From an uncultured Alphaproteobacteria bacterium (GTDB lineage: Bacteria; Pseudomonadota; Alphaproteobacteria; RF32; CAG-239), in NCBI GenBank assembly GCA_947588655.1, contig CANPYS010000004.1, forward strand, positions 3,947 to 67,946: a DNA stretch of 64,000 nucleotides, in the 5' to 3' direction. Shown here piece after piece: positions 36,682 through 60,242 of the stretch. Numbering within the stretch: position 1 is the stretch's first letter; the number at the start of each line of letters is the position of its first letter. A program made the translations under genes and the position numbers. The notes under the pieces are model-generated. The model saw only the letters and a list, made by a program, of their open reading frames with translations. It was not told where the DNA came from and searched no databases.

Positions 36682-36689
36682 AGTTTCAG

Positions 36690-37541: not shown

Positions 37542-37547
37542 AAATAA

Positions 37548-39951: not shown

Positions 39952-40077
39952 TTATAAGTCTCCTAAAGTTTGACTATTAGTTTTTCAAACAGAACCGAAA
40001 ATTATCAGCATATTTAGTCATCCCCAAAATGCCCTTTTATCCACAGAAACCAAAACTTTCCACGCATTTCCCGGTAC

Positions 40078-40188
40078 TTGCAAAAAAACGTACCTTTTTT
40101 TTCAATATTTTTTAAGTTTTCAACAGCTTGAATTCTCTTGAGTTTTTTTCTTGATTTATTATGAAAAAAAAGGTACGTTTTTTTGCAA
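40078..40188. promoter_or_regulatory. Inverted-repeat-flanked promoter, candidate invertible element 2
   Basis: 27-bp perfect IR (40078-40104 / 40162-40188) with 57-bp spacer; TTGATT (40151-40156) lies 17 bp from TACGTT (40174-40179); sits between divergent genes. Confidence 0.6.
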
Positions 40189-40207
40189 CATTGCAGGAGA
40201 AAACTGA

Positions 40208-44855: not shown

Positions 44856-45477
44856 TTATTTGATTTTACGCACGGGGACGCCCACATAAACGCCTGACTC
44901 TTCCACATTGTTAATAACAACCCCTCCTGAGCCAATGGTAACATTTGCACAAATACTAACGCTATCTTTAATTGTTACACCTGCACCAACAAACGCATCA
45001 TGACCAATCATTGTTCTTCCGCATACTGTAGAATTAGGAGCAAGATGACAAAACTCCCCTATTTTAACCTCATGTTCAACAACAGCGTTTGTATTAATAA
45101 TACTGCCCTTCCCCACATGGACAAAGGGTCCAATGTAAGCTCCATCACCAATAAAGCAACCACTTTCTATTACAGCATTTTTAAATACATTGGCTCTAGC
45201 AGATATAACAGAAACAAGTTTTTTCTTAGAAGAAATCTGACGCCTTTTAGCATTATCACCAATCGCCACAAATATATTTTGAGCATCTTGAGGAAGTGTT
45301 CTAACGACCGGAAAATTAAAAATTCGCTCATTATCTTGAGCATTTTCATCTACAAATATAATTTTTGCATCAGGAAAGTTTTGCAACACAACAGAAGCGA
45401 CACTTCGGGCATGGCCTCCACAACCAATAATAATTAATTTACCCCCCCCCGAAATTAAAATTTATTTTGTTTTCCAT
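44856..45477 (-). CDS. NeuD/PglD-family acetyltransferase, frameshifted at G9; ~206 aa if rejoined
   Basis: AGGAG RBS; ATG at 45477 reads MENKINFNFGGG-stop. G8 gives FGGGKLIIIGCGGHARSV..., continuing into hexapeptide repeats (INTNAVVEHEV). Confidence 0.88.
45442..45450 (-). repeat. G9 tract, out of frame (G8/G11 restores)
   Basis: tttaCCCCCCCCCgaa. Confidence 0.9.
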
Positions 45478-45567: not shown

Positions 45568-46746
45568 TCAAAATGCCCTTATAATTCTTGACAATTCTCT
45601 CAGAAGGTCATGGCCGTCCCAAACAATATCAATATTCATCGCCTGTCCAACCGGAACAATCCGATCAATACCGCGGACATGGCAAGCCATAAACTTTGAG
45701 CGCAATGCCTGAGCATCAACGCCAAAATATGTTAATGTCTGATATTTTTCCGTCATCACATCAACAAGTTCTGAAATATCTTTAAGGGCATATTCATAGA
45801 AAAAGCCACCCTTACCCCGATGAAAAACAATTTCAGGATTAAGGCTTTTCAACTCTGCCCGATACAACAAATTATCATACCGTGCAATTTGTAAAATATT
45901 TTCATTTGAAATACTTTCTTCGCACAATAAAGTATATTTATCAACAGCAACGGCGTCTTGCAGAGAATATTTTTGCATTGCCACGTCATAAACCGCATGC
46001 CAGAAAATTTCTCTTGCTTTTGGGTTATCATTTTCCCATAAAATCAGCTGTGGCGAAGAGCAAGCATTTTGATCCATCAAATATGTATCATTATAAAAGT
46101 TTTCAGCCAATTTTTTGAGCTCTGTCGCTGAGGCGGCAAGAACAGACTTAGCAGAAATCAGCGCCAACGAATATCTATCCGCAAAGCTAACATCCACGCA
46201 ATGCGGCAATGCCGGCATAGCCTTAACCAGCGCAATCGTTTCATCGCCGCCCCAAATCATACGGACATCGGCCTTTTTAGAAAACGCTGCCGTTATCTCA
46301 TTATCGCGCGGATAACGCACAAATGCCGTTCGTTTCCCAATTTCCGGATATTTTGCAACAACTTTTTTGAATACTTCGCAAAAAGTATCAATTTGCGGGA
46401 AGAGCTTACTCGGAAGCCGAACAATATTAGCATTGCCGGCAAGCAATGAAAACAGATAAGAAAACGCAAAATTAATCGGGATATTTGACGGAGCAATATG
46501 AAAGCACAACCCACGTCCGATACGTTCATTTATATCTGAATAAAGGTTTTTCATCTTTTGCAAATTCGCCTTTCTGCTCCAAAATGCCAAAGCCGACAAA
46601 TCAGACATTGTGCGGAGCATGGGGGGGGGTAATTGAAGCAAAGCAGAAGACAATTCGGACACAAAAGCACAAACATTTTCATCAAATGGTTGCATGGGCG
46701 AAGAGTCAATGTTTTCAGAGCCAAAAATAAAATTAACGTTTTTCAT
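45568..46746 (-). CDS. LuxC-like acyl-CoA reductase, C9 in frame
   Basis: GRGLCFHIAPSNIPINF, LLAGNANIVRLPS, WGGDET, DQNACSSPQ; start MKNVN overlaps the luxE-like stop. Confidence 0.88.
   Translation of the reverse strand: MKNVNFIFGSENIDSSPMQPFDENVCAFVSELSSALLQLPPPMLRTMSDLSALAFWSRKANLQKMKNLYSDINERIGRGLCFHIAPSNIPINFAFSYLFSLLAGNANIVRLPSKLFPQIDTFCEVFKKVVAKYPEIGKRTAFVRYPRDNEITAAFSKKADVRMIWGGDETIALVKAMPALPHCVDVSFADRYSLALISAKSVLAASATELKKLAENFYNDTYLMDQNACSSPQLILWENDNPKAREIFWHAVYDVAMQKYSLQDAVAVDKYTLLCEESISNENILQIARYDNLLYRAELKSLNPEIVFHRGKGGFFYEYALKDISELVDVMTEKYQTLTYFGVDAQALRSKFMACHVRGIDRIVPVGQAMNIDIVWDGHDLLRELSRIIRAF
46621..46629 (-). repeat. C9 (sense) tract, in frame (LPPPM)
   Basis: + strand catGGGGGGGGGtaa. 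Confidence 0.9.
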
Positions 46747-47809
46747 AGGTATCACTACACCCCCTGATTTCTGCATTTTTAATCCGTCCAAAAATCTTAA
46801 AATACTTTCCTTTTCTGCCGCAAGGACAATCATCAACACCCAACACAGCACCTTCATCTTCGGTTAAAATAAGATGCCCTGGGTAACTTGTCGGCAAAAC
46901 GGAAGCCACCTCAATAAGCCCCCTTTCGCCAATCGCCGCCTCAGAAAAATCTTTGGAACGACGGATAATGACATCGGAATAATTAGAGCAATGCATATGC
47001 CCGTGCTCACATTCCACAAAAACCGAGCCAAGTTGTTCAACCATGCCGTAATAGTTATAAACTTTCACATTGCCCAAAACACCTTGCACTCGTCGATTAA
47101 ACTCTAAAGCGTCAACAGCCTGATCTTTTAATTTTTTCCAGCCACCAATATGAAACAACACAGCGTTTTGAGCATTAAATTTAAGGCCTTTTTCTTCCAA
47201 AACACGCACAATAAACTGCCAAATCATATATGTGTAGCCAAACATTAAAACCGGCTCATTGTGGTATTTTTCAAAAAATTGCACCACTTTATCAACATCA
47301 ATATTCATCTCATTATCAAGCGCATAAGTACTGTCACGCCCGAAAATAGAAAATCCGATAATCCCCGCGCCCCTTGCCGAGTACATTGTGCGATCTTTTT
47401 TAATGAGTTCTGTATCAAGCAAAAGTAACGGCAGACGCTGTTTCCCGATAAAAGAGGAAACAATTTCATTTAAGGTTTTCGTCTGATTTTTCACATTATT
47501 TGCATCTAAAAAAATCTTGGAAACCGCCTGTCCTGATGTACCTGAAGACGTCAGCGTTTTAACAATTTTTTCCTTTTCCACCGAGCGAAGTTCATAATTT
47601 TTAAACAATCTGGCGGGAATAAACGGCAAATCAGAAACAGATTTAATTTTTGAGGGTTGAAAACAAAGTTTATCTAAAATTTTTTTATATTCCGGACATT
47701 TTTCATAATGATAACAAGTTAAATCAAGCAGATTATCTTTAAGCGCTTTTTCTTTTGCCTGACAATCTAAGCTATACGGATTTAAATTAAAAAATTCTTC
47801 AAGTGTCAT
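46733..47809 (-). CDS. LuxE-like acyl-protein synthetase
   Basis: LTSSGTSG, GGWK, YYGMVE, YPGHLILTEDEG, CPCGRKG...GRIKNAEIRGCS. Confidence 0.9.
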   Translation of the reverse strand: MTLEEFFNLNPYSLDCQAKEKALKDNLLDLTCYHYEKCPEYKKILDKLCFQPSKIKSVSDLPFIPARLFKNYELRSVEKEKIVKTLTSSGTSGQAVSKIFLDANNVKNQTKTLNEIVSSFIGKQRLPLLLLDTELIKKDRTMYSARGAGIIGFSIFGRDSTYALDNEMNIDVDKVVQFFEKYHNEPVLMFGYTYMIWQFIVRVLEEKGLKFNAQNAVLFHIGGWKKLKDQAVDALEFNRRVQGVLGNVKVYNYYGMVEQLGSVFVECEHGHMHCSNYSDVIIRRSKDFSEAAIGERGLIEVASVLPTSYPGHLILTEDEGAVLGVDDCPCGRKGKYFKIFGRIKNAEIRGCSDTYEKR

Positions 47810-47885
47810 AAGTTACCTCTTTTAAAAAGATGTCTTTAATTCCTAGAACAAAAGCTTATAGGCAATATTTAAAATTTCATCAAAA

Positions 47886-49292
47886 CTAAGCATACATTTT
47901 TTCCAATTCCTGATAAAGCGTTTTACCGGCGCTATTTTTCGGCAACGCATCAACACCAATCACGGCAAACGCCGTTTGGTTCAACCCTGTTTTTTCGGCC
48001 AAAAAATTTCGGATTTCGGCACATTTTTCTTTTTCGGTAATATAAACATGCATTTCATCATCATGACCAGCGCAAGCACATTCCATATCGTTATAGCGCG
48101 ATTTGATCAGCCTTTCCGTTTCATCCAGCCCAACACGATTCCCAAAAATTTTCAAAAACCGTTTCTTGCGTCCGACAATCGTATAAAAGCCATCGGCATC
48201 AAACTTTGCCATATCGCCTGTCAGTAAGCGACCGTTATTTTCATCGCCTTTAGCCAAATCTTCCCCGCAAAGTGCATAGCCCATGGTCACATTTTCGCCT
48301 TCATAAACCAATTCGCCAACCGTTTCCGGCGTATGAATTTCTTGACCGTTTTCATCAACGAGCATAAATTTGCCACCCGGAATGGCTTTGCCCATACAGC
48401 CCCATTTTTCAAGCGAAATTTCAGGCGGGAGATAACCCATACGCGCCGTTGCTTCCGCCGAACCATACATCACCACAAACGCTTTTCCTTGTTCTTTGGC
48501 ATACTCGGCAAATTTCTTGTGCAATTCGGGCAAGAGTTTTCCGCCCGCCTGCGTCAGCGTATGCAAATACGGCAAATTGCGCCTAAAAAACATTAGCTTA
48601 TTAAGCATTTCATAAGTATAAGGCACACCGCTGAAAGAGGTGGCTTCATATTTGTTCATAAAATTCCAAAAATCGCGTTGCATAATGGTTTTATCAGTTA
48701 AAAGCAACGTTGCGCCAACCGCCAAATGCGTATTGATAACCGACAACCCAAACGTGTAATTCATCGGCAACACAGTAATGGGACGTTCTGCCGAGTTTAA
48801 GTGCAAATAGCTCACAATCGCCTCTAGATTGCTCTCAATATTGCGGTAACTTTGGCGCACAAACTTCGGACTTCCCGTAGAGCCCGAAGTCGTTAGCAAA
48901 AGAGCCAAATCAGGATGAAGCGGATAAACTCTTTCATTGGCCGTTTTCAAAAGATGATACCCCCAACTTGAAAAAACAACCTCCCCTTTCGCTTTTTTAG
49001 CTAAATCCGCCGGAAGCCAAAGGTAATCAGGCTGATACTGCTCCAAAAACCTTTTGAGCAAGGTTTCATCAATATGCGCATCAAGCATCAACGGTACAAT
49101 TTTGTTTTGCAAAAATGTGGTATAACCGACAAGCGAACCTAACGTATTCCGACACAAGCAAAACACCAAACAACGATGCGGAATATGTTTGGCAAGCTCT
49201 TGTGTATAGGCTAGAAGTTCGGCATAAGTCGTTTGTTGACCGTTGTCATCAATGACGGCCAAGTGATAAGGATATTTCTCAAAATTCCACAT
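47886..49292 (-). CDS. AMP-binding adenylation / acyl-ACP ligase
   Basis: LLTTSGSTGSPK, YGSAEA, TGDMAKFDADG...GRKKR. Confidence 0.9.
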   Translation of the reverse strand: MWNFEKYPYHLAVIDDNGQQTTYAELLAYTQELAKHIPHRCLVFCLCRNTLGSLVGYTTFLQNKIVPLMLDAHIDETLLKRFLEQYQPDYLWLPADLAKKAKGEVVFSSWGYHLLKTANERVYPLHPDLALLLTTSGSTGSPKFVRQSYRNIESNLEAIVSYLHLNSAERPITVLPMNYTFGLSVINTHLAVGATLLLTDKTIMQRDFWNFMNKYEATSFSGVPYTYEMLNKLMFFRRNLPYLHTLTQAGGKLLPELHKKFAEYAKEQGKAFVVMYGSAEATARMGYLPPEISLEKWGCMGKAIPGGKFMLVDENGQEIHTPETVGELVYEGENVTMGYALCGEDLAKGDENNGRLLTGDMAKFDADGFYTIVGRKKRFLKIFGNRVGLDETERLIKSRYNDMECACAGHDDEMHVYITEKEKCAEIRNFLAEKTGLNQTAFAVIGVDALPKNSAGKTLYQELEKMYA

Positions 49293-49515
49293 TATATTTC
49301 TTCAGAATTTCCTTACCTTTTTCAAAGCTTGACAAGTCCACAATATCATCAGGTTCCATCATAATGTCAAAAGCTTCTTCTAATTGTGCAATCAAACCCA
49401 TATGACCAACGGAATCCCACGCCGGAATAGCTTGAAATTCAAGTGTTTTAGCCTTATCTGTATCAATTTCAAAAGCCTGCACAAAAGCGTTTATATATTT
49501 TTCTTCATTTGTCAT
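49279..49515 (-). CDS. Acyl carrier protein
   Basis: WDSVGHMGL phosphopantetheine motif; acidic, 78 aa. Confidence 0.9.
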   Translation of the reverse strand: MTNEEKYINAFVQAFEIDTDKAKTLEFQAIPAWDSVGHMGLIAQLEEAFDIMMEPDDIVDLSSFEKGKEILKKYNVEF

Positions 49516-49534
49516 TTATTTTCTCCATATTCAC

Positions 49535-50275
49535 TCAGTTACGGCCGCCATCAACACGAATAACCTGACCTGTAACATATTCAGATTCGTCTGAAGCCAA
49601 AAATAATGCAACTTTTGCCACATCTTCAGGCATGCCCAACCTTTTCAAACACACCTTAGATTTTTCAGCACAGAGCACTTCAGGCTTCATATTCCTGATT
49701 AACGACGTTTCCGTGACTCCTGGAGCAATACAATTTGCCCTTATACCAAACGATCCCAACTCTTTAGCCAAAGACTTTGTTACCGTTATCAAAGCCGCTT
49801 TTGTCGCGCCGTAAACAGACTGCCCTTCCATGCCTTCCAAGGCACTGATAGAAGATATGTTTATAATACTGCCTTCTTTTTGGCGTACCATCAGTTTACT
49901 AACCAACTGCATAAGATAAAACGGTGCCAAAAAATTGATGTTAAACATTTTTTGAACATCGTCCATCAAAGTCATTTGTACCAAAGATTCCTTAAATATA
50001 CCAGCATTATTTACTAAAATGTGAATAATTTTTTGAGTTTTTATTAATGCTTGAAATTCAAGTTTGATATTCTCATAATTTGCCATATCAAAATAAGCCG
50101 GACGGATATCAACACCATATTTTTCGGCAGTTTCTTTCAAAAACGCAACAAATTCAGGCGTTTCTTTGCGTGCATGTGCAATGATATTTGCCCCATTTTT
50201 AGCAAATTCTTCCACAATCGCCTTCCCGATTCCCCGATTCGTTCCAGTGATAAATGCAGTCTTCCCTTTAAGCAT
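49535..50275 (-). CDS. SDR, FabG-like (paralog 1)
   Basis: TGTNRGIG, NNAG, YGATK, IRVDGG. Confidence 0.92.
   Translation of the reverse strand: MLKGKTAFITGTNRGIGKAIVEEFAKNGANIIAHARKETPEFVAFLKETAEKYGVDIRPAYFDMANYENIKLEFQALIKTQKIIHILVNNAGIFKESLVQMTLMDDVQKMFNINFLAPFYLMQLVSKLMVRQKEGSIINISSISALEGMEGQSVYGATKAALITVTKSLAKELGSFGIRANCIAPGVTETSLIRNMKPEVLCAEKSKVCLKRLGMPEDVAKVALFLASDESEYVTGQVIRVDGGRN
50085..50275. repeat. 191-bp identical direct repeat, copy 1
   Basis: Base-for-base match to 52783-52973 (5' end of both SDR paralogs). Confidence 0.95.
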
Positions 50276-50332
50276 GGAGAACCTCCCGACGAACTGAACT
50301 TATTTTATGAAATTTCGGGTTGTTTAAAACAC

Positions 50333-50368
50333 AGAAGAATCCGCTTTGAGCAAAAAGCGGATTCTTCT
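50333..50368 (-). terminator. 15-bp-stem hairpin between transketolase and SDR genes
   Basis: agaagaatccgcttt-gagcaa-aaagcggattcttct. Confidence 0.6.
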
Positions 50369-50388
50369 CTTGCTTTAATCTTATAAGG

Positions 50389-51399
50389 TTAGCTTTCTCT
50401 ACCCCCCCCCCGCAGGTTTTTATAGGCTTCTATAATCTTTGCCACTATCTGCGGGGCTGTTAAACCACACTGAGAAAGCATATAGGCATAATCGCCTGCT
50501 TTTTCAAAAACATCCGGAATTCCAATAATTAATTGGGGTGGCATGTTTTCAAAACAGCTTTTATATTCTGCAACCGCACTTCCCAAGCCACCTAAGGCAA
50601 AGTGTTCTTCAATTGTTACAATCAGCCGATGTTTTGCAAACAAGGCTTGAAGCAGTTTTGTATCAAGAGGTTTAATGGTGTGCATATCAACAATTGTTGT
50701 TGAAATATTTTCTTTTGCCAACGCTCTAGACGCCCGCAAAGCTTCTGAAACCATAGAGCCGGTAGCTACAATGGCGACATCTGTCCCCTCTCTTAAAACA
50801 ATACCTTTTCCAATCTGAAAATCATAATCTTCTTTATAAACAGGTGTTGCCCCGTTTGTCCCGCTTAAGCGAATGTAGCACGGACCCTTCATAGAAGCGG
50901 CGACACAAATAGTTTTATATGTTTCAACACCGTCAGCTGGTGATAAAACCGTCATATTCGGAATAACACGAGTAATAGCCAAATCTTCAAGGCCATAATG
51001 CGTATTTCCGACGACACCTCCGGCTAAACCACTCATGAGGCCGACAACTTTTACATTCAAATTCATATATCCGAGTTGGGTTCGTAGCATTTCAAACGGG
51101 CGCATTGTCGCAAAAGGCGCGAATGTTGTTGCAAAGACAGTTTTTCCTGTTGAAGCCAAGCCAGCAGAAATTCCAATCATATTTTGTTCGGCAATTCCCA
51201 CATTAACAAATTTTTCCGGTGCTTTTTCGGCAAATTCCTTTAAGCGGGCAGAGCCCATAACATCAGCAACGACAACTCTTAAATCGGGCATATTCTGCTC
51301 TATATCTGTTAGTGCCAAACCAAAAACACCCCTGGATGAAATACGGGAAAAATGCTGAACTGTTTGCATATCATACATCATAGTTTTACTCCAACTCAC
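50389..51399 (-). CDS. Transketolase-like C-terminal (pyrimidine-binding) subunit, G10 at 3' end
   Basis: NVGIAEQNM, THYGLEDLA, VDMHTIKPLD, EEH...GGLG. Confidence 0.92.
   Translation of the reverse strand: MSWSKTMMYDMQTVQHFSRISSRGVFGLALTDIEQNMPDLRVVVADVMGSARLKEFAEKAPEKFVNVGIAEQNMIGISAGLASTGKTVFATTFAPFATMRPFEMLRTQLGYMNLNVKVVGLMSGLAGGVVGNTHYGLEDLAITRVIPNMTVLSPADGVETYKTICVAASMKGPCYIRLSGTNGATPVYKEDYDFQIGKGIVLREGTDVAIVATGSMVSEALRASRALAKENISTTIVDMHTIKPLDTKLLQALFAKHRLIVTIEEHFALGGLGSAVAEYKSCFENMPPQLIIGIPDVFEKAGDYAYMLSQCGLTAPQIVAKIIEAYKNLRGGGRES
50402..50411 (-). repeat. G10 tract four codons before stop
   Basis: aCCCCCCCCCCgcag. Confidence 0.9.
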
Positions 51400-52174
51400 T
51401 CATTGCTAAAGCATATTGTTCATCATTTAAAACATGATGATGCCACTCAGGATTTCCTTCCATAAAAGAAACACCTTTACCCTTAACGGTATGAGCAATA
51501 ATGGCTAATGGTTTATTCCTTTCCCGAGATAAAGCGGTTTCAATATCTTCAAAATTATGCCCATCAATCTCAACAACCTCCCAATGAAAGGCTTTAAGTT
51601 TCTGAGCCCAATCATCAACCGGCATAATATCTTGTGACAAGCCATCTAATTGCATTTGATTATCATCAACAATCAAGCACACAGAACAAATATTTTTATG
51701 TCCGGCAAACATAGCCGCTTCCCAAAAAGAGCCCTCGTTAAGTTCGCCATTGCCAGCCATAACATAAATATTGCTTTGTTTATAGCCTAACGCTTGCCCT
51801 AAAGCAAAAGAAAGTCCAAGTCCCAAACTGCCACTAGATAAATCTATGCCGAATTCCGTTTTTTTAACACAATGAGAAGGAAAATCAGATCCGTTTGCAT
51901 TAAAGGAAAGCAATTGTTCATGCGTTATAAAGCCGTATTCATAAAGTGTTGCATACAGAGCTTGAGCGCAATGTCCCTTGCTTAAAATGAATCTGTCTCT
52001 CACCATTTGAGTAACATTTTCAGGGTTAAGATGTATAACTTTCCCAAACAAAACAGCCATCAGATCCGCCATGGAAAGCGAGCCACCGAAATGCCCACCT
52101 TTTACACCACAGGCATGTCCGGCTTCTATAATACTTTTCCGAATGTTTTGTGCTTTTTGTTCAATATTCATCAT
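51386..52174 (-). CDS. Transketolase-like N-terminal (TPP-binding) subunit
   Basis: GHFGGSLS, RDRFILSKGH, SSGSLGLG, GNGELNEG..WEA, HTVKGKG; start taken at MMNIEQ. Confidence 0.92.
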   Translation of the reverse strand: MMNIEQKAQNIRKSIIEAGHACGVKGGHFGGSLSMADLMAVLFGKVIHLNPENVTQMVRDRFILSKGHCAQALYATLYEYGFITHEQLLSFNANGSDFPSHCVKKTEFGIDLSSGSLGLGLSFALGQALGYKQSNIYVMAGNGELNEGSFWEAAMFAGHKNICSVCLIVDDNQMQLDGLSQDIMPVDDWAQKLKAFHWEVVEIDGHNFEDIETALSRERNKPLAIIAHTVKGKGVSFMEGNPEWHHHVLNDEQYALAMSELE

Positions 52175-52235
52175 GATCTCCATTAGTGCATAAAAAGCAG
52201 GTGTTCCTTCTTCTATTATGAAACCCGCTCGTATC

Positions 52236-52973
52236 TTACCCCCCCCCATCAACACGGATAGGTTGTCCATTAATAAAGGACGATTCGTCTGAAGCCAAAA
52301 ACACCGCAACTTTAGCAATCTCTTGAGGATATGCTTTACGCTTCATCGCTGATGTTTCAATCATTTTATTTCCGTTTTCAGGTTTCATTTGGGCGCCCAT
52401 ATCCGTATCCGTTAACCCCGGACAAATGGCATTAACCCTCACGCCGTTTGTGCCGCATTCTGCAGCCAAAGTTTGCGTAAACGCAATTAAGGCCGCTTTT
52501 GAAACGCCATAAGCACAATTTCCTTCCAACATATCTATTCCCGAGATAGAAGACATGTTTATAATGCTACCGCCACCACAGCGAATAATCCAACGTAAAA
52601 GCTGTTGGGTCAATTCCAAATGTGCGAAAAAGTTTATTTCAAAAACTTCCCTGATTTTTTGTATAGAGGTCATTTGAAAATAACCACCATGAGCAATGCC
52701 GGCATTATTAACCAAAATATGCACAGGAATTTTTGAGGCAATTAGCGCCCGAATGTTTTGCTTCATGGCATCATAATCGGTTATATCAAAATAAGCCGGA
52801 CGGATATCAACACCATATTTTTCGGCAGTTTCTTTCAAAAACGCAACAAATTCAGGCGTTTCTTTGCGTGCATGTGCAATGATATTTGCCCCATTTTTAG
52901 CAAATTCTTCCACAATCGCCTTCCCGATTCCCCGATTCGTTCCAGTGATAAATGCAGTCTTCCCTTTAAGCAT
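52236..52973 (-). CDS. SDR, FabG-like (paralog 2), G9 immediately before stop
   Basis: First 63 aa identical to paralog 1; YGVSK; ends RVDGGG-stop. Confidence 0.92.
   Translation of the reverse strand: MLKGKTAFITGTNRGIGKAIVEEFAKNGANIIAHARKETPEFVAFLKETAEKYGVDIRPAYFDITDYDAMKQNIRALIASKIPVHILVNNAGIAHGGYFQMTSIQKIREVFEINFFAHLELTQQLLRWIIRCGGGSIINMSSISGIDMLEGNCAYGVSKAALIAFTQTLAAECGTNGVRVNAICPGLTDTDMGAQMKPENGNKMIETSAMKRKAYPQEIAKVAVFLASDESSFINGQPIRVDGGG
52239..52247 (-). repeat. G9 tract at stop codon; G8/G11 fuses SDR to transketolase
   Basis: ttaCCCCCCCCCatc. Confidence 0.9.
52783..52973. repeat. 191-bp identical direct repeat, copy 2
   Basis: See 50085-50275. Confidence 0.95.
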
Positions 52974-54123
52974 TATTACCTGCCTTGAAATAATTAATCC
53001 AATAGTCTATTTTTTCTTGCCGTGACATTTTACCCTTAGGTGTTTTATATGTCTTAATCGGAAAAGCTTTTGTATCATGTAAATCTACCAATACCCCCCC
53101 CCATGAAAAACCAACGCCAAACGCAATTAAACAAGCCAGTTTTAAAGGTTGTTGGCACAATTTGTTCAAAATATCCAAACTTACCGTTGCCGAACCACAG
53201 TTGCCATAATGAGAAAAAACCTCTGTTGAATAAGCCGTTTTAGGAATTTTGACATATCTTGCAATAGAATCTACAATTTGTTTATTTGCTTGATGAAACG
53301 CAAAATAATCTACATCTTCCAATTTTACATGCGCCATATCCAAAACCGACAGAATAACTTGAGGGGTAATTTCTGTTGCAAATTTAAATACTTCAAGCCC
53401 TTTCATTAAATCATCATACAAATGCCAAACATTACCGGCACTATCTAAAACTTCAAGATCTGCAATATCTGCGCGAATAGGCAACGCTGAACCACCTGCC
53501 GGCGCAATAAGTTGATCCCAGCCTTTACCGCGGGAACCAGTACAAAAATACGACAAACATTCTTCATCGGTCTTTTCTATTAATGTTGCTGTTGCAGCAT
53601 CACCAAACAACATATTAGAATTGCGATTTCGCCGGTCAGAATGCGTGCTGGCAAGGTCGCTTGTCAGCAATAAAACCCTTTTGGCACAACCACTTGCAAT
53701 CATAGAAAAAGCATTCTGCAAACCATACACATGAGCAGAGCAAGCCAAACCAGACATATCAAAACAAGTGCAGTCTTCTTTCAAATTTAAGCGACCATGC
53801 AAAACACACGAGGTGGCCGGCCAAAAATAATCATGCGAGGTTGAGGCTACAATCAAACTGTCTATGGTATCTTTATCAATATCCAAATTGTAAATCAAAT
53901 CACGCGCAGCCGCTTCACACAAATCGGCGCAAGTTGTTTTATCATCAACAGTGTGGCGTTTTCCAAGCCCCAAAATCTTTTTATTACGCTCCAAAAGCTT
54001 AATATCATTGTTAAAAAATTCAATTTCATCATCAATATTAATAAAGCTTTCAGGCACAACACCGGCTATACCCTTAATTTTGATATGTTCAAAAACTGTT
54101 TTCACCTTATTTTCCTTTAACAA
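52966..54123 (-). CDS. FabH/KAS III-like ketoacyl-ACP synthase (paralog 1), G9 in frame
   Basis: GLACSA, FGDAATA, FHQANK, YGNCGSA, FGVGFSWGG. Confidence 0.9.
   Translation of the reverse strand: MLKENKVKTVFEHIKIKGIAGVVPESFINIDDEIEFFNNDIKLLERNKKILGLGKRHTVDDKTTCADLCEAAARDLIYNLDIDKDTIDSLIVASTSHDYFWPATSCVLHGRLNLKEDCTCFDMSGLACSAHVYGLQNAFSMIASGCAKRVLLLTSDLASTHSDRRNRNSNMLFGDAATATLIEKTDEECLSYFCTGSRGKGWDQLIAPAGGSALPIRADIADLEVLDSAGNVWHLYDDLMKGLEVFKFATEITPQVILSVLDMAHVKLEDVDYFAFHQANKQIVDSIARYVKIPKTAYSTEVFSHYGNCGSATVSLDILNKLCQQPLKLACLIAFGVGFSWGGVLVDLHDTKAFPIKTYKTPKGKMSRQEKIDYWINYFKAGNNA
53094..53102 (-). repeat. G9 tract, in frame (SWGGV)
   Basis: ataCCCCCCCCCatg. Confidence 0.9.
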
Positions 54124-54857
54124 TTTGTATAATTAACGACATAATTTTGCCCAGTAATCCATTGGGCTTCATCTGATAATAAGAAAGAAACAACATTAGC
54201 CACATCTTGCGGCTTTCCAAGGCCTAAGGGATATTTATATTTGATTAAGTCCATGATTTCAGGAATATTTTGCGTCATGGGTGTATCAATATCACCTGGC
54301 GATACTGTATTAAACCGGATTTCTTCAGCAGCATATTCTTTGGCAATAGCCTGCATTGAAGCAACCAATGCCGCCTTAGATCCACCGTAAGAAATTAAGC
54401 CTTTCGCCGCATTTTGGTAGGCTATGGAAGAAACAGAAACAAAACTTGAACCTTTGCCGGCATGAACGCCTTTCTGTACAAAGCCTTTAGCCATCATCAA
54501 CGGAACAAAGAAATTAATGTCAAAAATCTTTTTTGTTTCTGAAAAATTTACAGCACGCAAAGGCAAAGTTTCGGTTATGCCCGCACTGCAAACAACCCCG
54601 AACAACGCTCCATATTTTTGACTTAACTGTTCCATATACTTCGGTAAAGATGCCATATCTTCTGTTAAATCCTTTTGCTCAAAAAACAATCGCTCAGGCG
54701 CTTCTAACTTTTTGATAAGCGCATCAAAAGCCTCTTTATTCCTACCAATACCAACAACTACCCCCCCCCGAGCATTTATATCTATAGCAACAGCTTCACC
54801 TATGCCGGAAGTTGCACCCGTTACAACAAAAACCTGATTTGAATTAAACTGAACCAT
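54117..54857 (-). CDS. SDR oxidoreductase, G9 in frame
   Basis: VTGATSGIG, YGGSK, FNTVSPG; start taken at MVQF (54857). Confidence 0.88.
   Translation of the reverse strand: MVQFNSNQVFVVTGATSGIGEAVAIDINARGGVVVGIGRNKEAFDALIKKLEAPERLFFEQKDLTEDMASLPKYMEQLSQKYGALFGVVCSAGITETLPLRAVNFSETKKIFDINFFVPLMMAKGFVQKGVHAGKGSSFVSVSSIAYQNAAKGLISYGGSKAALVASMQAIAKEYAAEEIRFNTVSPGDIDTPMTQNIPEIMDLIKYKYPLGLGKPQDVANVVSFLLSDEAQWITGQNYVVNYTNC
54761..54769 (-). repeat. G9 tract, in frame (ARGGV)
   Basis: actaCCCCCCCCCgag. Confidence 0.9.
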
Positions 54858-54874
54858 TTTTATTCCCCTCTCTT

Positions 54875-55606
54875 TTAGAACGCACCGCAATCTATAATAT
54901 AATTTTGCTTTGTTATCCATTTTGCTTTGTCAGAAAGCAAAAAGACAACCATATTTGCAACATCATCAACATGCCCAATCCCGAAAGGATATTTCCCTTC
55001 GGCATATTGTTTTTCAAGCTCGCCTGCCATGGCCGTTTCAATTAAGCTTGGCGAAACACAATTTACGCGCAACCCCGTAGAAGACAATTCATCTGCAACA
55101 GCATGCATGGAATTAATAAGCGCGGCTTTTGTTCCCGCATAGCATGACTGCCCAGGAGTAGGATGGACACCTGCAATAGAAGCAATACATACAACAGAAG
55201 CATTTGGTTGATGGTTTCTTTTATCTGCAAGACCTTTGAGCATAAATATCGGCGCAAAATAATTAATGTTAAACATTGCTTGATAGGCCTCATAATTTGC
55301 AAGACGCAAGGGCTCTAAGACACCTGCTCCCGCACAAAAAGCCATGCCCTGAAATTTACCGTATTTCTCTCTTAAGGCCTTAACATAAGCCGGTAACTCT
55401 TCAATATCCTCCGTTAAATCTTTATGTTCAATATAAATATTTTCAGGAATTTCTGCTTTTTCTCTCAACTCATGAAGTTTATTTTCACGACGCGCAACCG
55501 CCACCACACTCGCCCCAAGTTTATTCAGAAGCAAGGCAACCGCTTCGCCTATACCTGAGCTTGCGCCTGTCACGATAAATATTTGAGATTTATCAAATTG
55601 TATCAT
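54875..55606 (-). CDS. SDR oxidoreductase
   Basis: VTGASSGIG, YAGTK, RVNCVSPS. Confidence 0.9.
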   Translation of the reverse strand: MIQFDKSQIFIVTGASSGIGEAVALLLNKLGASVVAVARRENKLHELREKAEIPENIYIEHKDLTEDIEELPAYVKALREKYGKFQGMAFCAGAGVLEPLRLANYEAYQAMFNINYFAPIFMLKGLADKRNHQPNASVVCIASIAGVHPTPGQSCYAGTKAALINSMHAVADELSSTGLRVNCVSPSLIETAMAGELEKQYAEGKYPFGIGHVDDVANMVVFLLSDKAKWITKQNYIIDCGAF

Positions 55607-56027
55607 TTTCTTTTTTTAACTCCACCAATTCAATGATCATAGAATTGCGGAAGGCAAGATAACACCAATTTACAATATCGCAGTTTTTATCATCTAAGTG
55701 AGTCATCGGCACAAGGTACATACCTTTGTTTTCAGCAATCAAACGCTCGGCATCATTTACGATATCATCACTGACATAAGCAAAATGATAAATTTTACGT
55801 CGGGCTTGAAGGTGCGCCGTTATAGGCCCATCTGCTGACAAATTAGCGACTAATTCTAAATCAGGACTTACCCCCCCCCGCGTATTTTTCAAAAAGCACA
55901 CACGTATGCCCGTTTGAGGTTCTTCGCGAATGCCTCCTAAAGGACTATAACCAAAGCAAGAAAAGAATTGGACATCTTTTTCAATGCTTTTGGATGCAAT
56001 GCCAATATGATGTAACCCTTTAAGCAT
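55593..56027 (-). CDS. VOC-family protein (methylmalonyl-CoA epimerase-like), G9 in frame
   Basis: LHHIGIA, LELV, IYHFAY, IIELVE; start taken at MLKGLHH. Confidence 0.8.
   Translation of the reverse strand: MLKGLHHIGIASKSIEKDVQFFSCFGYSPLGGIREEPQTGIRVCFLKNTRGGVSPDLELVANLSADGPITAHLQARRKIYHFAYVSDDIVNDAERLIAENKGMYLVPMTHLDDKNCDIVNWCYLAFRNSMIIELVELKKENDTI
55871..55879 (-). repeat. G9 tract, in frame (TRGGV)
   Basis: cttaCCCCCCCCCgcg. Confidence 0.9.
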
Positions 56028-56028
56028 C

Positions 56029-56247
56029 TTATAAACCCGCTTTCTTGGCAATATCACCAATGGTCTTCATGTCTTTATAGTCTTTCATGGTTGTTTTTAC
56101 ACCAAATTCTTTATCCAAAAACGCCATTGTCGCCATAATAGATAATGAATCCCATTCGGCCAAATCTGCCAAAACAGTATCAAAGCTGATTTCTTCTTCT
56201 GTTTGCAAAACTTCAACCATTTCAGTTAAAAATTCATCTTTAGTCAT
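56029..56247 (-). CDS. Acyl carrier protein
   Basis: EWDSLSIM motif; acidic, 72 aa. Confidence 0.9.
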   Translation of the reverse strand: MTKDEFLTEMVEVLQTEEEISFDTVLADLAEWDSLSIMATMAFLDKEFGVKTTMKDYKDMKTIGDIAKKAGL

Positions 56248-57378
56248 TTTTCTTCTCCTTTAAAAGATTTAATCCAATTGTTAATTTGTTCTTCTCTTGT
56301 TGGGCGATTCGCAGGAGGTACATAAGTTGATATACCTCCATTATATAAACCTCGCAGATTTATTGCTCCCCCCCCCCCAAGATAATCCTACACCAAACCC
56401 ACATAGAATGGTATTTCCCCAAGTTTTACCCTGAGGTTGATCACATAAAAGCGTAGCTAGCGAATTTGTTGAATTATTAGCATATTTCGTAAAAACATCT
56501 GTCGGCGCTTTTTGCACAGAAACACCTGCACTGCTAACAATATTCTCTACAATTTGCTTATTTGCCTGATGTATGGCATATAAATCAACATCGGCATCTG
56601 TCCATCCGGCAAGAGCCAACGTCTGCTTTATTGTTTGCGGGGCGACATCCATCGTGAATCTAAAAACATCTTCTCCCTTTATAATTCTATCTGATGCAGC
56701 ACGCCAAGAAAATGGGCCATCTTGAAGTATCAGATTCAAAATATCCACATCTAACGGCAAACGCGCACCGCCAAAAGGACAAATAATTTTATCAAACCCA
56801 CTCCCGTCTGTTCCTACCACAAAAAAAGATTTATACACATCTGATGAATATTCTAAAATTGTGGCGGAAGCAGCATCGCCAAAAACACGGGCATCTTTTG
56901 CTTGCGCCGAGCCTGTTCTGGAGGGAATATCCCCTGCCAAAAGGAGGCACTTTTTTCCAAGCCCAACCTCTAATAATGCATGCGCCACTAAAAGCGCTTG
57001 CATATAACCTGAACAGCCAGAATTTATATCAAGCGCAAAACACTCTTTTTTTAACCCCAACATACCATGAGCAACACTAGCATTATTAGGCTCCTTATAA
57101 TCAGGCTTTTGACTTACAAAAACAAGTAAATCAATTTCTTCGGTGCTGATACCCATTTCATGCATAAGCTTCTTGGCAGCATCTGTAGCCATATCCGTTA
57201 CAGTTGTTAAATCGTCCGCAATATAGCGACGCCCATAACCAACCATCTTTTTAGCACGAGCTAACTTTTTAGGGTTATTATCAAAAAATTCAAGCTCATC
57301 TTCCACATTTATCATATGTTGCGGTATAACTGTCTTTATACCACTAACCTTAACATGATTAAAAGATGTCGTTGTCAT
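56244..57378 (-). CDS. FabH/KAS III-like synthase (paralog 2), frameshifted at G11; ~377 aa if rejoined
   Basis: NSGCSG, FGDAASA, IHQANK, GFGVGLSW. G10 adds GGGAINLRG...REEQINNWIKSFKGEEK-stop, which parallels the paralog 1 tail and overlaps the ACP start (ATGA). Confidence 0.88.
56368..56378 (-). repeat. G11 tract, out of frame (G10 restores)
   Basis: gctCCCCCCCCCCCaag. Confidence 0.9.
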
Positions 57379-57452
57379 TTTTTCTCCTGTAAATTCAATT
57401 TTAACAACACTTAAACGCTTCTCCTATGACCGAATTAAGTAGTATTATTTTT

Positions 57453-58085
57453 TCAAACTTTCCGAGCAGGATTTCCTATCATATAGCAATTATTTTTACA
57501 ACCTTTGTAAACAGCCGATAGGGGTGCAATCTTATTATTATCACCAATGGCACTATGTGGCAAAAGAACTGAAGATGTCCCAATAGAATTCATATTTCCT
57601 ATTTTAACGCCCCCTAACATATGTGAGTTTGGTCCGAAAAAATTAAAATCACCAACTTCAACATCATGACCTAGTCCAACATGACCATTAAACAAATTGG
57701 CACAACCGATTTTAACTTCTGATGAAACAACACAATTTATAGTAAAAATGTTTGCTTCGCCAATTTCACTGTGCGGAAATATAATAACAGAAGGATCTAT
57801 GACTGTAAAAAACTTAATACCCTTAGATTTCAAATATTTATAAATTCTCTCTCTAATTTCTGGATAGCCAGAGCCTATAACAGCATAATCATTTTCCTTA
57901 AACTGAAAATCAGCAACATCACAAATCCATTGGGACGAAAAATCTTTCAAATCCGCCTTATAGCCACCTTCTCCTAGGAAACCCGCAAAATGTATATCTT
58001 TATCATATTCAGCCATACGCTGAATATAAGAATAACATTCCCGAGCAAATCCATTTCCGCCAACAATATAAATATTTTTCATCAT
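57453..58085 (-). CDS. NeuD/PglD/PerB-like hexapeptide acyltransferase
   Basis: IYIVGGNGFARE, FFTVIDPS, GHDVEVGDF, GNPARKV; start taken at 58085, next to the restored per stop. Confidence 0.88.
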   Translation of the reverse strand: MMKNIYIVGGNGFARECYSYIQRMAEYDKDIHFAGFLGEGGYKADLKDFSSQWICDVADFQFKENDYAVIGSGYPEIRERIYKYLKSKGIKFFTVIDPSVIIFPHSEIGEANIFTINCVVSSEVKIGCANLFNGHVGLGHDVEVGDFNFFGPNSHMLGGVKIGNMNSIGTSSVLLPHSAIGDNNKIAPLSAVYKGCKNNCYMIGNPARKV

Positions 58086-58086
58086 A

Positions 58087-59191
58087 TTACCCTTTTGTTC
58101 CATAATATTGTTTAATTGCAGCACAAATATTTTGAACATCATTATGAGTTAATGCAGGGTAAGATGGAAAATTAATTCCTCTAGAGGCTAAGTTTTCTGC
58201 AACTGGTAAACACTCAAACCGTTTGTTATACACCGGCATTTGGTGTATACATGGAAATGTTGGTCGGGTTTCTATACCCCCCCCCCATTGATTTCAAAGA
58301 TTCTCTTAGGGCTGTTCTATCTTCCTTAGATTCCGCCAGTGCGGATACCATCCAAAATGTGTGAAAAACATCACCAACAGGTTTATGAAAAACAAGAGGC
58401 GTATGCGCTAATTCCTCCATATACCATAGAGCAACCTGACGCTTGGCCGCAATAAACTTTTCAATCTGTTCAAACTGCGCCAGACCAATTGCCCCTTGAA
58501 TGTTTGTCATACGATAATTATACGCCGAAACATCATGCCAATATTCACGCCACGCAACAACACCCTGCCCGTGCAAATGAACAACGCGCTCAAATAATTC
58601 GTCATTGTTACAAACAACCATACCACCTTCACCGGTTGTAATCGTTTTATTTCCAAAAAACGAAAAACAAGCAATATCCCCAAAACTGCCAACTTTTTGA
58701 CCCTTATATTCAGAACCAATTGCTTCTGCACAATCTTCTATCAAAAACAAATTATATTTTTTAGCTAATGCGCACAAAGTATCCATCTCAGCCGGATGGC
58801 CATATAAATGTACGACCATTATAGCCTTGGTTTTAGGAGTAATTTTACGTTCAATATCACTCGGATCCATTTGCCAGCTATCGGGTAAACTATCACAAAA
58901 AACAACTTTACAACCAAGCTGTGCAAACGGATTCGCTGAAGCTATATAAGTAAACGTTGGACAAATAACCTCATCACCTTCACCCAAGCCAAGAGCTGAA
59001 GCCGCCAAATGAATTGCAACCGTACCATTACAGACACCTTTACCATGTTTAACACCTATAAAATTGGTAAAAGCTTTTTCAAAATCAGTCACAAAATGCC
59101 CTTTGCACGAAATCCAACCCGTATCAAGACACTCATCAACATACTTCTTTTCATTTCCAGTTAAACTTGGTTGGTAAACAGGATATTTCAT
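58087..59191 (-). CDS. per: GDP-perosamine synthase (DegT/DnrJ aminotransferase), frameshifted at G10; ~367 aa if rejoined
   Basis: CNGTVAIHLA, EDCAEA, SFFGNKTITTGEGG, YNYRMTNIQGAIG. G9 restores GIETRPTFPCIHQMPVY...LASRGINFPSYP. Confidence 0.88.
58277..58286 (-). repeat. G10 tract, out of frame (G9 restores)
   Basis: ctataCCCCCCCCCCattg. Confidence 0.9.
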
Positions 59192-59210
59192 TTTATCTCC
59201 TTTTTTAATC

Positions 59211-60242
59211 TTATAAAGTTCCTTTATGGGCTCTTTCAATATCAGCTTCAACCATCATTCGAGCCAACCCGGCAAAATCAACTTTCCGCCGCCAACCTAA
59301 AACTTTTTCGGCTTTAGCCGGATTACCAAGCAAAACCTCCACTTCAGCAGGGCGATAAAATTCTGGATTAACCTTAACGATCGTTTTTTCTGTTTTTTTA
59401 TCAATACCGATTTCATGAATGCCTTCACCCTGCCATTCAATTTCAAAGCCAGCTGTTTTGCCTGCTTCTTCAACAAATTCTCTGATAGAGTGTGTTTCAT
59501 TGGTTGCCAAAACATAGGTATCTGATTTTTCCTGTTGCAACATTTGCCACATACCTTCCACATAATCTCCAGCAAAGCCCCAATCACGTTTAGCATTTAA
59601 ATTACCAAGTTCCAAAACTTTATCTGTAAGACCAGTAACCATTTCGGCAAAATGAGCCGTAATTTTACGAGTCACAAATTCTTTGCCTCTCATAGGACTT
59701 TCGTGATTAAATAAAATTCCGGAGCTAACATGCAAGCCAAAACTTTCACGATAATTTGTAACCAACCAATGTGCCATTAACTTTGCGCATCCATAGGGAG
59801 ATCTCGGATAAAAAGGTGTCGTTTCAGACTGAACAGGTTCCTGAATCTTACCAAACATTTCGGATGTTGACGCCTGATAAAAATGTGTATGCGGTGAAAA
59901 TTCCCTAATAGCTTCCAAAATATATAAAACACCCATACCGTCAGCTTGAGCTGTATAAATAGGTTCGCTCCAAGAAGCCGCTACGAAACTTTGCGCTGCT
60001 AAATTATAGAACTCATCAGGTTGATATTTTTTTATTAAACGACAAATATTAGAAAACTCCAAAAGATCAAAATCTTTCATTTCAATTTTATCTAGTATAC
60101 CGTGCTCTTTCAATTTTGAAAAAGTATCTGTGGCACCCCGACGATACAAACCAACCACATGATATCCTTTAGAAAGTAAAAACTTTGCCAAATATCCACC
60201 ATCTTGCCCTGTTATACCAGTAATCATTGCTGTTTTAGTCAT
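59211..60242 (-). CDS. gmd: GDP-mannose 4,6-dehydratase
   Basis: ITGITGQDGGYLA, YNLAAQSFV, YQASTSEMFG, FYPRSPYGCAK, FNHESPMRG, GNLNAKRDWG. Confidence 0.97.
   Translation of the reverse strand: MTKTAMITGITGQDGGYLAKFLLSKGYHVVGLYRRGATDTFSKLKEHGILDKIEMKDFDLLEFSNICRLIKKYQPDEFYNLAAQSFVAASWSEPIYTAQADGMGVLYILEAIREFSPHTHFYQASTSEMFGKIQEPVQSETTPFYPRSPYGCAKLMAHWLVTNYRESFGLHVSSGILFNHESPMRGKEFVTRKITAHFAEMVTGLTDKVLELGNLNAKRDWGFAGDYVEGMWQMLQQEKSDTYVLATNETHSIREFVEEAGKTAGFEIEWQGEGIHEIGIDKKTEKTIVKVNPEFYRPAEVEVLLGNPAKAEKVLGWRRKVDFAGLARMMVEADIERAHKGTL

Follow-up and report, generated by a model that had tools for sequence, protein, structure and literature searches.

A probable N-acyl-perosamine gene cluster with two carrier-protein modules and dense poly-G/C tracts in an uncultured gut alphaproteobacterium

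We describe a gene cluster in a stretch of 64,000 nucleotides (the window) of contig CANPYS010000004.1, from an uncultured Alphaproteobacteria bacterium. Gene identities were taken from a Pfam domain search of the open reading frames (ORFs) of the window, with NCBIfam and Protein Data Bank (PDB) sequence comparisons in addition. Together with the ORF list, the domains define one tight run of 19 co-oriented genes on the minus strand, with small gaps or overlaps between them. The run includes genes for GDP-perosamine synthesis, two sets of genes that we call modules A and B, each with an acyl carrier protein (ACP), and two candidate N-acyltransferases, AT1 and AT2. Module A consists of AT1, FabH1, ACP1, a VOC-fold protein, the short-chain dehydrogenases/reductases SDR1 and SDR2, and FabH2. 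Module B consists of SDR3, the two chains of a split transketolase (TK-N and TK-C), SDR4, ACP2, an adenylate-forming ligase, LuxE and LuxC. The domains and gene order bear out an initial annotation made from the letters alone, which had listed co-oriented genes from per to LuxC and a second acyltransferase; the latter had been placed within 45568-59191, but its gene lies at 44856-45477, below that start. No cluster protein reaches a curated NCBIfam cut-off, so that no equivalog names can be assigned. We will argue, with moderate confidence in the proposal as a whole, that this surface-glycan locus combines GDP-perosamine with one or two unusual hydroxylated acyl groups made by modules A and B, and that its poly-G/C tracts are phase-variable.

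Gmd is adjacent to Per, a DegT-family aminotransferase that is closest to proven perosamine synthases. With its reading frame repaired (see below), Per matches the perosamine synthetase of Caulobacter crescentus (3BN1/3DR4) with 340 bits and an E-value of 1.8e-100, the next solved aminotransferase scoring 251 bits, and GDP-perosamine is a well-supported prediction for the product of the pair. Both acyltransferases belong to the NeuD/PglB/VioB family, AT1 being the more divergent one. AT1 reaches 124 bits with NCBIfam TIGR03570, under the cut-off of 160.8, and its best PDB match is VioB (7TXP, 58 bits); homologues of it are found inside related FabH/transketolase clusters (L066, L175-L178). AT2 scores 157 bits with the same model, just under the cut-off, and the repaired protein has the perosamine N-acetyltransferase PerB (4EA7, 85 bits) as its best PDB match, so it may simply N-acetylate. 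The idea that two ACP-based sub-pathways make novel N-acyl groups, put forward in the initial annotation, thus stands as far as the GDP-perosamine genes, the two carrier-protein modules and the NeuD/PglD/VioB-family acyltransferases are concerned, and is weakened by the second acyltransferase being most like PerB.

Module A brings together in one glycan operon two β-ketoacyl-ACP synthases (KAS), a dedicated ACP, ketoreductases and a PglD-family acyltransferase, which is the gene content of N-hydroxyacyl pathways resembling type II fatty-acid synthesis. FabH2 has its best PDB matches in 4EFI/3GWA, and its Cys (LACS), His (FHQAN) and Asn (YGN) motifs align with the conserved residues. ACP1 is 76-80% identical in the related loci L066, L174 and L175. 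The VOC protein is conserved in L174 at 61%; its PDB matches are all weak, and so is its likeness to methylmalonyl-CoA epimerase, the NCBIfam score for metmalonyl_epim (34 bits) being below the cut-off. The vioR/vioS/vioB genes of Pseudomonas syringae, for N-3-hydroxybutanoyl viosamine, are likewise comparable to this module. For the O-polysaccharide of Flavobacterium psychrophilum, in which an N-3,5-dihydroxyhexanoyl group is proven by nuclear magnetic resonance, wfpC/E have been proposed as KAS genes, wfpD as the ACP, wfpF as the reductase and wfpG as the acyltransferase (PMC6519341). The analogy leads us to expect a short 3-hydroxy or 3,5-dihydroxy acyl-ACP from module A.

We now consider module B, which with its ACP, adenylating ligase, LuxE, LuxC and a hexapeptide acyltransferase near per has, by Pfam domains and gene order, the gene content of the tetronate pathway of Vibrio cholerae O1. 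There, the wbe/rfb K-L-M-N-O genes provide the 3-deoxy-L-glycero-tetronyl group on perosamine, and the logic of ACP, ligase and LuxE/LuxC is attributed to WbeK/L/N. The present ligase would be the counterpart of WbeL/RfbL, while an iron-dependent alcohol dehydrogenase domain of the WbeM type is found in no cluster ORF. The 78-residue ORF is treated as a carrier protein (ACP2) because of its WDSV motif, its overlap with the ligase start and its conserved position: more than 50 loci have it next to the ligase, with 50-80% conservation. It had been suggested that the lux-like genes are not a bioluminescence operon, and we agree. The ORFs scanned in the window (most of those of at least 120 residues, plus the cluster ORFs) contain no luciferase domain, and the equivalog scores of LuxC (44.7 bits against a cut-off of 750) and LuxE (75.6 against 550) are far too low; a bacterial lux operon was accordingly rejected. 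Homologues of LuxE form at least 7984 clusters at E<=1e-10 (of 8000 candidates scored), and the best 120 of them carry no informative names.

To see how module B is distributed, the window proteins were mapped onto 79 loci recovered with TK-C. The set SDR, TK-N, TK-C, SDR, ACP, ligase, LuxE and LuxC co-occurs in about 50 of the 79, in many phyla, the hosts including Lachnospiraceae, Burkholderia/Paraburkholderia, Dickeya, Kosakonia, Pelagibacteraceae, Pseudoalteromonas and Gastranaerophilales. It is often accompanied by a DegT aminotransferase and a β-helix acyltransferase, as in Dickeya oryzae (L028). The transketolase thus travels with the ligase, LuxE and LuxC, and not with the FabH set. 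Uncharacterized sets of ACP, FabG, ligase, LuxE and LuxC have been described in flagellin glycosylation islands (PMC7874193, PMC4875605). Our literature searches (transketolase with LuxE/LuxC, glycosylation islands, O-antigen clusters, rfbN/rfbL) returned nothing relevant.

The transketolase pair has its best structural relative in the split enzyme of Carboxydothermus hydrogenoformans, TK-N scoring 201 bits with 6YAK and TK-C 249 bits with 6YAJ. The thiamine pyrophosphate (TPP) binding fold, the cofactor-activating Glu and the catalytic His are present, and the motifs GIAEQN, GH.GG and HH are retained. In TK-N, GNG takes the place of the TPP motif GDG, and as GNG is conserved in the closest relatives, the change is not a random lesion. 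The sugar-phosphate pocket, on the other hand, is not the canonical one ('H..G...GEDG', with its His and Asp): in TK-C the sequence 'tHaGltvGEDGasHQ' reads 'lMSGLAGGVVGNTHY', which replaces the His by Met and the Asp by Val. We take these residues to be the phosphate-binding His (human H416/E. coli H461) and the specificity Asp (D424/D469). Both are lost in every cassette-linked homologue, whereas the canonical motif is intact in the housekeeping split transketolases that the search also recovered (Thermosyntropha, Syntrophomonas, Methanomassiliicoccales). A housekeeping transketolase was rejected on these grounds, and the cassette enzymes appear from their sequences to be a distinct subfamily.

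In the E. coli enzyme, mutation of D469, S385 and R520 shifts the acceptor specificity from phosphorylated sugars to aldehydes that are non-phosphorylated and to non-polar ones (PMC5073344). On the basis of this precedent and of the diverged pocket of the cassette enzymes, we infer that the natural acceptor is an ACP2-tethered aldehyde supplied by LuxE/LuxC, to which the transketolase would add a two-carbon ketol that the SDRs then reduce. A bolder version, which we put forward only tentatively and consider rather unlikely to hold, is that the cassette transketolases form a new class of carrier-protein-dependent 'ketol synthases' that extend an ACP-tethered aldehyde from LuxE/LuxC by two hydroxylated carbons, with SDR reduction after every round, iteratively in loci with tandem units, and with each step phase-variable in the present cluster.

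Two rabbit-gut contigs binned as Gastranaerophilales, L005 (CANPZN010000032.1) and L006 (CANQNW010000017.1), contain two or three tandem SDR-SDR-TK-N-TK-C units, which suggest iterated extension. They have G9-G10 tracts at positions similar to those of the window (SDR C-terminus, TK-C, LuxC N-terminus); unless these contigs are mis-binned, the cassette with its tracts crosses phyla.

We now turn to the tracts themselves. Seven internal ones had been listed, all of which exist, but the cluster total is ten, all of 9-11 nucleotides; those missed are at 58277 (G10, in per), 45442 (G9, at the 5' end of AT2) and 60647 (G9, in the GT4 gene upstream of gmd). The listed tracts at 50402, 52239, 53094, 54761, 55871 and 56368 are poly-C on the plus strand, that is poly-G in the coding strand, while the one at 46621, in LuxC, has the opposite polarity, with poly-C in the coding strand. 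In the whole window there are 19 G/C runs of at least 8 nucleotides, and all but one of them belong to the glycan locus, at 29.3-60.7 kb. The density amounts to ten tracts in the 15.5 kb of the cluster and 18 in the roughly 31-kb glycan locus. Counting distinct tracts of at least 9 nucleotides, 16 are found in 64 kb, where about 0 are expected; 22 nine-mer G/C matches are observed compared to 0.15 expected, a number reached in none of 100 shuffles. Homopolymers of at least 8 nucleotides inside ORFs or at their 5' ends, as in contingency loci, are thus present far above chance.

The frame analysis shows that five tracts with a clear on/off effect are presently in the on state: those of LuxC (C9), SDR2 (G9), VOC (G9), FabH2 (G9) and the GT4 gene (G9). 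SDR2 would be truncated at any tract length except 9 or 12. Three genes are presently off. The per frame is not intact, since G10 truncates the protein after residue 322, and the Pfam DegT match of Per as sequenced ends at profile position 300 of 360; with G9 the gene would encode a full-length protein of 367 residues ending '...GGGIETRPTFPCIHQMPVY...', and '...GGGIETRPTF...' is restored. With G11, FabH1 has its last ca 40 residues replaced, and G10 would yield a 377-residue protein with a tail homologous to that of FabH2. In AT2, G9 places the ATG and the first nine codons out of frame, G8 or G11 giving 'MENKINFNFGGGKLIIIGCGGHARS...'. Because per, FabH1 and AT2 are out of frame, the window sequence as written would not make the product. 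The tracts of TK-C (G10) and SDR3 (G9) lie in the last codons, at the extreme C-termini; every length variant of TK-C keeps the core, and G8 or G11 in SDR3 would fuse it to TK-N. The suggestion that the tracts could vary chain length and reduction state is supported by their location in chain-extending (FabH) and reducing (SDR) genes, and by two of the cluster tracts differing in length (see below); for the two C-terminal ones, a role as on/off switches is unlikely.

Outside the cluster, three further ORFs look phase-off. At 32198-33603, C9 at 32762 divides a 286-residue ORF from a GT1 C-terminal fragment, and a length of 10 would fuse them into 471 codons; at 35261-36681, C8 at 36174 splits an ORF of 477 codons; and at 40208-42098, G10 at 40634 splits a 629-codon FkbH-domain protein. 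Another possible route of variation is recombination. SDR4 and SDR3 both start with a copy of a 203-nucleotide direct repeat (D1; 50073-50275 and 52771-52973, 98% identical), and their first ca 63 residues are identical. If the two copies recombined, 2,698 bp would be lost, comprising most of SDR3 and both transketolase genes, and a hybrid SDR would be left.

Tract lengths could be compared with short-read metagenome contigs from other samples, which are 99.4-100% identical to the window and have a coverage of 2-5x. For per, the window and L001 have G10, and L002 (99.4% identical) has G9. For fabH1, the window and L169 have G11, and L168 (99.9% identical) has G10. The alternative length restores the ORF both times, which means that for these two genes a length polymorphism toggles the frame between near-identical contigs. 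At five other tracts covered by a second contig no length difference was seen, and the LuxC tract has the same length in the related contig L191. These comparisons are suggestive, and phase variation of the cluster is likely. There is a precedent in V. cholerae, where a phase-variable A8 tract selected by phage ICP1 lies in wbeL, the gene of the tetronate ligase (PMC3441752). Among the ten results of our literature search on phase variation in RF32, the lineage of the host, there was no paper containing that term.

Putting these elements together, we propose the following pathway. Gmd and Per would make GDP-perosamine. Module A would operate as a type-II fatty-acid-synthase-like line, building its short hydroxylated chain, possibly methyl-branched, on ACP1, as suggested by F. 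psychrophilum wfpC-G. In module B, a di-acid loaded on ACP2 by the ligase would have its free carboxyl activated by LuxE and then reduced to the aldehyde by LuxC. At the point where V. cholerae uses an alcohol dehydrogenase, the specialized transketolase would add its two-carbon ketol, and reduction by the SDRs would give a polyol acyl chain. The β-helix acyltransferases would attach one or more acyl groups to N4 of perosamine, although AT2 may instead acetylate. Finally, the ten poly-G/C tracts would make single steps contingency genes, such that the population varies in whether perosamine is made and in how the acyl group is built.

It is important to ask whether the two modules act separately or in series. 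The cluster had been regarded as unusually large, but it is neither this nor unique: the order FabH1-ACP1-(VOC)-SDR-(AT1)-FabH2-SDR-TK-N-TK-C-ACP2-ligase-(GNAT)-LuxE-LuxC recurs with 44-80% identity in contigs from gut and rumen, among them a rumen alphaproteobacterial metagenome-assembled genome (MAG; L066), the metagenome contigs L172, L174-L178 and L185, and L192. The cluster type is thus recurrent, not singular. In one scenario, the polyol acyl chain made on ACP2 by the module B enzymes primes FabH2/FabH1 for two extensions with malonyl-ACP1, SDR1 and SDR2 reduce each β-keto group, and AT1 transfers a single long polyhydroxy acyl chain to perosamine, AT2 being a PerB-type N-acetyltransferase for a phase-variable alternative decoration. 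The contiguity of the modules, in a near-identical order even in distant relatives, speaks for this, as does the fact that the relatives usually have one AT1-type acyltransferase, sometimes between SDR1 and FabH2 (L066, L174-L178). So does the acetyl-CoA-dependent nature of PerB, the best structural relative of AT2. Furthermore, in L191 (Logan ERR14656723, 96-97% identical to the window) the cassette is followed after LuxC by hfq/hflX, not by AT2.

However, in most loci (ca 40) no FabH accompanies module B, and the module of FabH, ACP, ketoreductase and acyltransferase stands alone in F. psychrophilum (PMC6519341); since each occurs without the other, both are self-sufficient elsewhere. In the window, moreover, each module is flanked by its own acyltransferase, and an acyl-ACP is a putative primer for these FabH enzymes. 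We regard a single convergent line as less likely than not; the modules may provide two acyl groups or one merged chain.

The contig L191 also differs from the window between ligase and LuxE, where it has a 630-bp gene (2267-2896) for a GNAT protein of 224 residues with a G9 tract of its own; the window has 50 nucleotides at this place (47838-47887). Other relatives have a gene at the same position as well (L192, and gaps in L066 and L171-L177). As L191 differs in both the GNAT gene and the downstream neighbor, the cassette appears to be mobile and its accessory genes variable.

Another option considered for the transketolase is that it supplies a two-carbon (glycolyl) unit to a carrier protein, or that it is a metabolic enzyme making a sugar precursor of the glycan. 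Two-subunit, TPP-dependent enzymes of this kind do load C2 units onto ACPs in natural-product pathways, as QncN/QncL in those of quinocarcin and naphthyridinomycin, and the transketolase genes have an ACP gene no more than two genes away here and directly after them in several relatives. But the QncN/L mechanism needs a lipoyl, E2 or acyltransferase (2-oxoacid dehydrogenase) domain, none of which is found in the cluster, and the QncN/L-type loading was rejected for want of this component. A pentose-phosphate role is at odds with the replaced pocket residues in all cassette transketolases, and the tight linkage to LuxE/LuxC in about 50 loci speaks against the whole explanation, which we judge improbable.

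That the tracts are no switching system at all, and that per, FabH1 and AT2 are frameshifted in a decaying or pseudogenized cluster or through mis-sequenced homopolymers, would agree with three genes being out of frame, with the low coverage of the supporting contigs and with the many short-read contigs that break at tracts, but it is very improbable given that long tracts are so numerous and nearly confined to the glycan locus, that most of them are in frame and some encode Gly where homologues have Gly (FabH 'WGG', SDR 'DGG'), that independent contigs repeat the window lengths (L001, L169) or have exactly the ORF-restoring one (L002, L168), that there are no other disabling mutations, and that the homologous clusters L005, L006 and L191 likewise carry G9-10 tracts. 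A pure poly-G sequencing artefact was rejected, the tracts being internal, 9-11 nucleotides long, mostly in frame and in part coding for homologue-conserved Gly.

Several points weigh against our proposal. The TK-C and SDR3 tracts alter only C-terminal tails, for which on/off switching is unlikely, and the tract differences, coming from 2-5x short-read assemblies, could include sequencing error. The likeness to the V. cholerae WbeK-O proteins is one of gene order and Pfam domains. Both the substrate of the ligase and the donor and acceptor of the transketolase are putative, and GNG could impair binding of the TPP cofactor, although it is conserved in the subclade. We found no paper linking a transketolase to LuxC/LuxE glycan genes, and no chemistry is known for the transketolase-containing cassettes. 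Finally, most related clusters have a single AT1-type acyltransferase for both modules, with none recognized in L192, and a single acyltransferase fits one merged pathway better than two independent ones.

The coordinates of the features are collected in Table 1.

Table 1. Genes of the perosamine/acyl cluster in order of transcription. Positions are those of the window; the ORF as scanned is given in parentheses where it differs.
Feature	Position	Strand	Evidence and remarks
GT4 glycosyltransferase	61480-62655	-	Pfam; first of two GT4 genes in transcription order
GT4 glycosyltransferase directly upstream of gmd	60239..61483	-	Pfam Glycos_transf_1; G9 tract 60647-60655, in frame
Gmd, GDP-mannose 4,6-dehydratase, 343 aa	59211..60242	-	Pfam GDP_Man_Dehyd, E 5.6e-126
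Per, GDP-perosamine synthase (predicted)	58087..59191 (58226-59251)	-	Pfam DegT; frameshifted, G10 58277-58286
AT1, left-handed β-helix N-acyltransferase, NeuD/PglB/VioB family	57453..58085 (57453-58142)	-	Pfam Hexapep
FabH1 (KAS III)	56244..57378 (56341-57378)	-	Pfam ACP_syn_III, ACP_syn_III_C; G11 56368-56378
ACP1, 72 aa, DSL serine motif	56029..56247	-	Pfam PP-binding, E 2.2e-6
VOC/glyoxalase-fold protein	55593..56027 (55593-56060)	-	Pfam Glyoxalase_4, E 1.9e-12; G9 55871-55879, in frame
SDR1, FabG-like ketoreductase	54875..55606	-	Pfam adh_short_C2, E 6.6e-41
SDR2, FabG-like ketoreductase	54117..54857 (54117-54920)	-	Pfam adh_short_C2, E 9.8e-42; G9 54761-54769 near N-terminus, in frame
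FabH2 (KAS III)	52966..54123	-	Pfam; G9 53094-53102 encodes C-terminal 'WGG', in frame
SDR3	52236..52973	-	Pfam; G9 52239-52247 encodes terminal 'DGGG'
TK-N, transketolase N-terminal (TPP-binding) subunit	51386..52183 (51386-52318)	-	Pfam Transketolase_N
TK-C, Transket_pyr + Transketolase_C subunit	50389..51399	-	Pfam; G10 50402-50411 in last codons
SDR4, FabG-like	49535..50275	-	Pfam
ACP2, probable carrier protein, 78 aa, WDSV serine motif	49279..49515	-	PP-binding weak, E 0.007; overlaps ligase start
Adenylate-forming ligase	47886..49292	-	Pfam AMP-binding, E 8.7e-39
LuxE-family acyl-protein synthetase	46733..47809	-	Pfam LuxE, E 1.5e-55
LuxC-family acyl reductase, NACSSP cysteine motif	45568..46746 (45568-46857)	-	Pfam LuxC, E 5.7e-27; C9 46621-46629
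AT2, PerB-like N-acyltransferase	44856..45477 (44856-45389)	-	Pfam Hexapep, PglD_N; G9 45442-45450

The neighboring housekeeping genes (pyrH, frr, uppS, cdsA, rseP, bamA, lpxD, fabZ, plsY, dprA, topA) indicate that the host is a diderm bacterium. TopA is 99% identical to that of the rabbit-gut MAG Lapin-021 bin60, labelled uncultured Alphaproteobacteria, and 75-85% identical to those of many gut and rumen alphaproteobacterial MAGs. We thus place the cluster in the cell-surface glycan locus of an uncultured gut alphaproteobacterium. Look-ups with Gmd, TopA, the ligase and ACP1 gave exact matches to window proteins on short ENA/Logan metagenome contigs only, the identical Gmd protein being present on four. 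An exact-protein look-up with TK-C from its GTG start gave no match, probably a matter of start-codon choice. A genome scan with TK-C found nothing above 61% identity, which means that the species representative, Lapin-021 bin60, either is without the cluster or failed to assemble it. When the ligase was used in a single scan of metagenomes, its best match was 65% identical (82% over a partial match), so that no near-identical strain came to light, but the scan did bring out the recurring arrangement of both modules. The short-read contigs of this organism (L001-L004, L165-L170) repeatedly break at or beside poly-G tracts, and loci of this kind are probably lost systematically from MAGs.

As to the remainder of the window, directly after topA (29167-32196) come an AlgX/DHHW protein of the SGNH type, whose G10 tract at 29355 is in frame, and an MBOAT protein; they form a pair for polysaccharide O-acylation on the border of the glycan locus. 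The region 33622-42098 encodes an FkbH-domain protein of the glyceryl-loading type, two methyltransferases, an IspD-like cytidylyltransferase, an SDR and a GT8 fused to a PIG-L deacetylase; several of these modification genes bear poly-G tracts, and they may constitute a third decoration pathway. At 461-4688, two multi-pass membrane proteins that have no Pfam match adjoin a GT2 gene. One has 490 residues, 9 hydrophobic segments and a C8 tract at 505, the other 584 residues and 8 segments, and they may be glycan polymerase, ligase or ArnT-like enzymes. Neither Wzx/Wzy nor an ABC exporter was recognized within the window.

The N-acyl substituents of amino sugars act as dominant epitopes and as determinants of phage receptors; the standard example is the tetronate of V. 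cholerae O1. The present cluster indicates that the ligase/LuxE/LuxC logic of the tetronate has a widespread, unstudied relative that recruits a specialized transketolase. Considering the spread of the cassette (Lachnospiraceae, Burkholderia, Dickeya, Pelagibacteraceae and others), a class of polyhydroxy-acyl glycan decorations may have gone unrecognized. The divergent transketolase pocket would be a natural counterpart of the laboratory-evolved D469 variants and hence of interest for biocatalysis. Should the ketol synthase idea be true, sugar-like polyol acyl chains would be built by TPP chemistry and not by Claisen condensation, and independently phase-variable steps would generate a combinatorial library of surface epitopes. 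The tracts would also extend Campylobacter-style poly-G contingency, at very high density, to a commensal lineage known only from metagenomes, and would explain the fragmentation of such loci in short-read assemblies and their absence from MAGs.

It is instructive, finally, to compare the cluster with known systems. Module A shares with wfpC-wfpG of F. psychrophilum two different KAS, a dedicated ACP, a FabG-type reductase and a PglD/VioB-family acyltransferase in a glycan locus (PMC6519341). Here, however, a second reductase and a VOC-fold protein are added, the acceptor would be GDP-perosamine and not Qui2NAc4N, a UDP-diamino sugar, and the module is joined to the transketolase/Lux cassette. 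The flagellin islands of Aeromonas group II and of Enterobacteriaceae have the core of ACP, ligase, LuxE and LuxC in a glycan context, interpreted there as 'fatty acid' genes (PMC7874193, PMC4875605), but neither paper contains the word transketolase (0 occurrences), and no flagellar or pse genes were seen in the window. With the poly-G/C contingency loci of the Campylobacter type, found in capsule, LOS and flagellin-glycan genes (review: PMC8355987), the cluster has in common intragenic G/C runs of 8-11 nucleotides in surface-glycan genes, on/off frameshifts and length differences between related genomes; it differs in its host, an uncultured gut alphaproteobacterium, and in its very high tract density. 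The split transketolase of C. hydrogenoformans has the same two-chain architecture and the conserved TPP-activating Glu and His residues, whereas the window proteins have GNG for GDG and 'MSGLAGGVVGNTHY' for 'THAGLTVGEDGASHQ'. With the V. cholerae O1 tetronate genes, the cluster shares the position next to gmd and per, the ACP, an adenylating ligase of ca 470 residues, LuxE/LuxC-type steps and a hexapeptide acyltransferase. The differences are that a split transketolase and two SDRs stand in place of WbeM, that LuxE and LuxC are separate genes here, and that poly-G tracts are found in almost every gene, compared to the A8 tract in wbeL.

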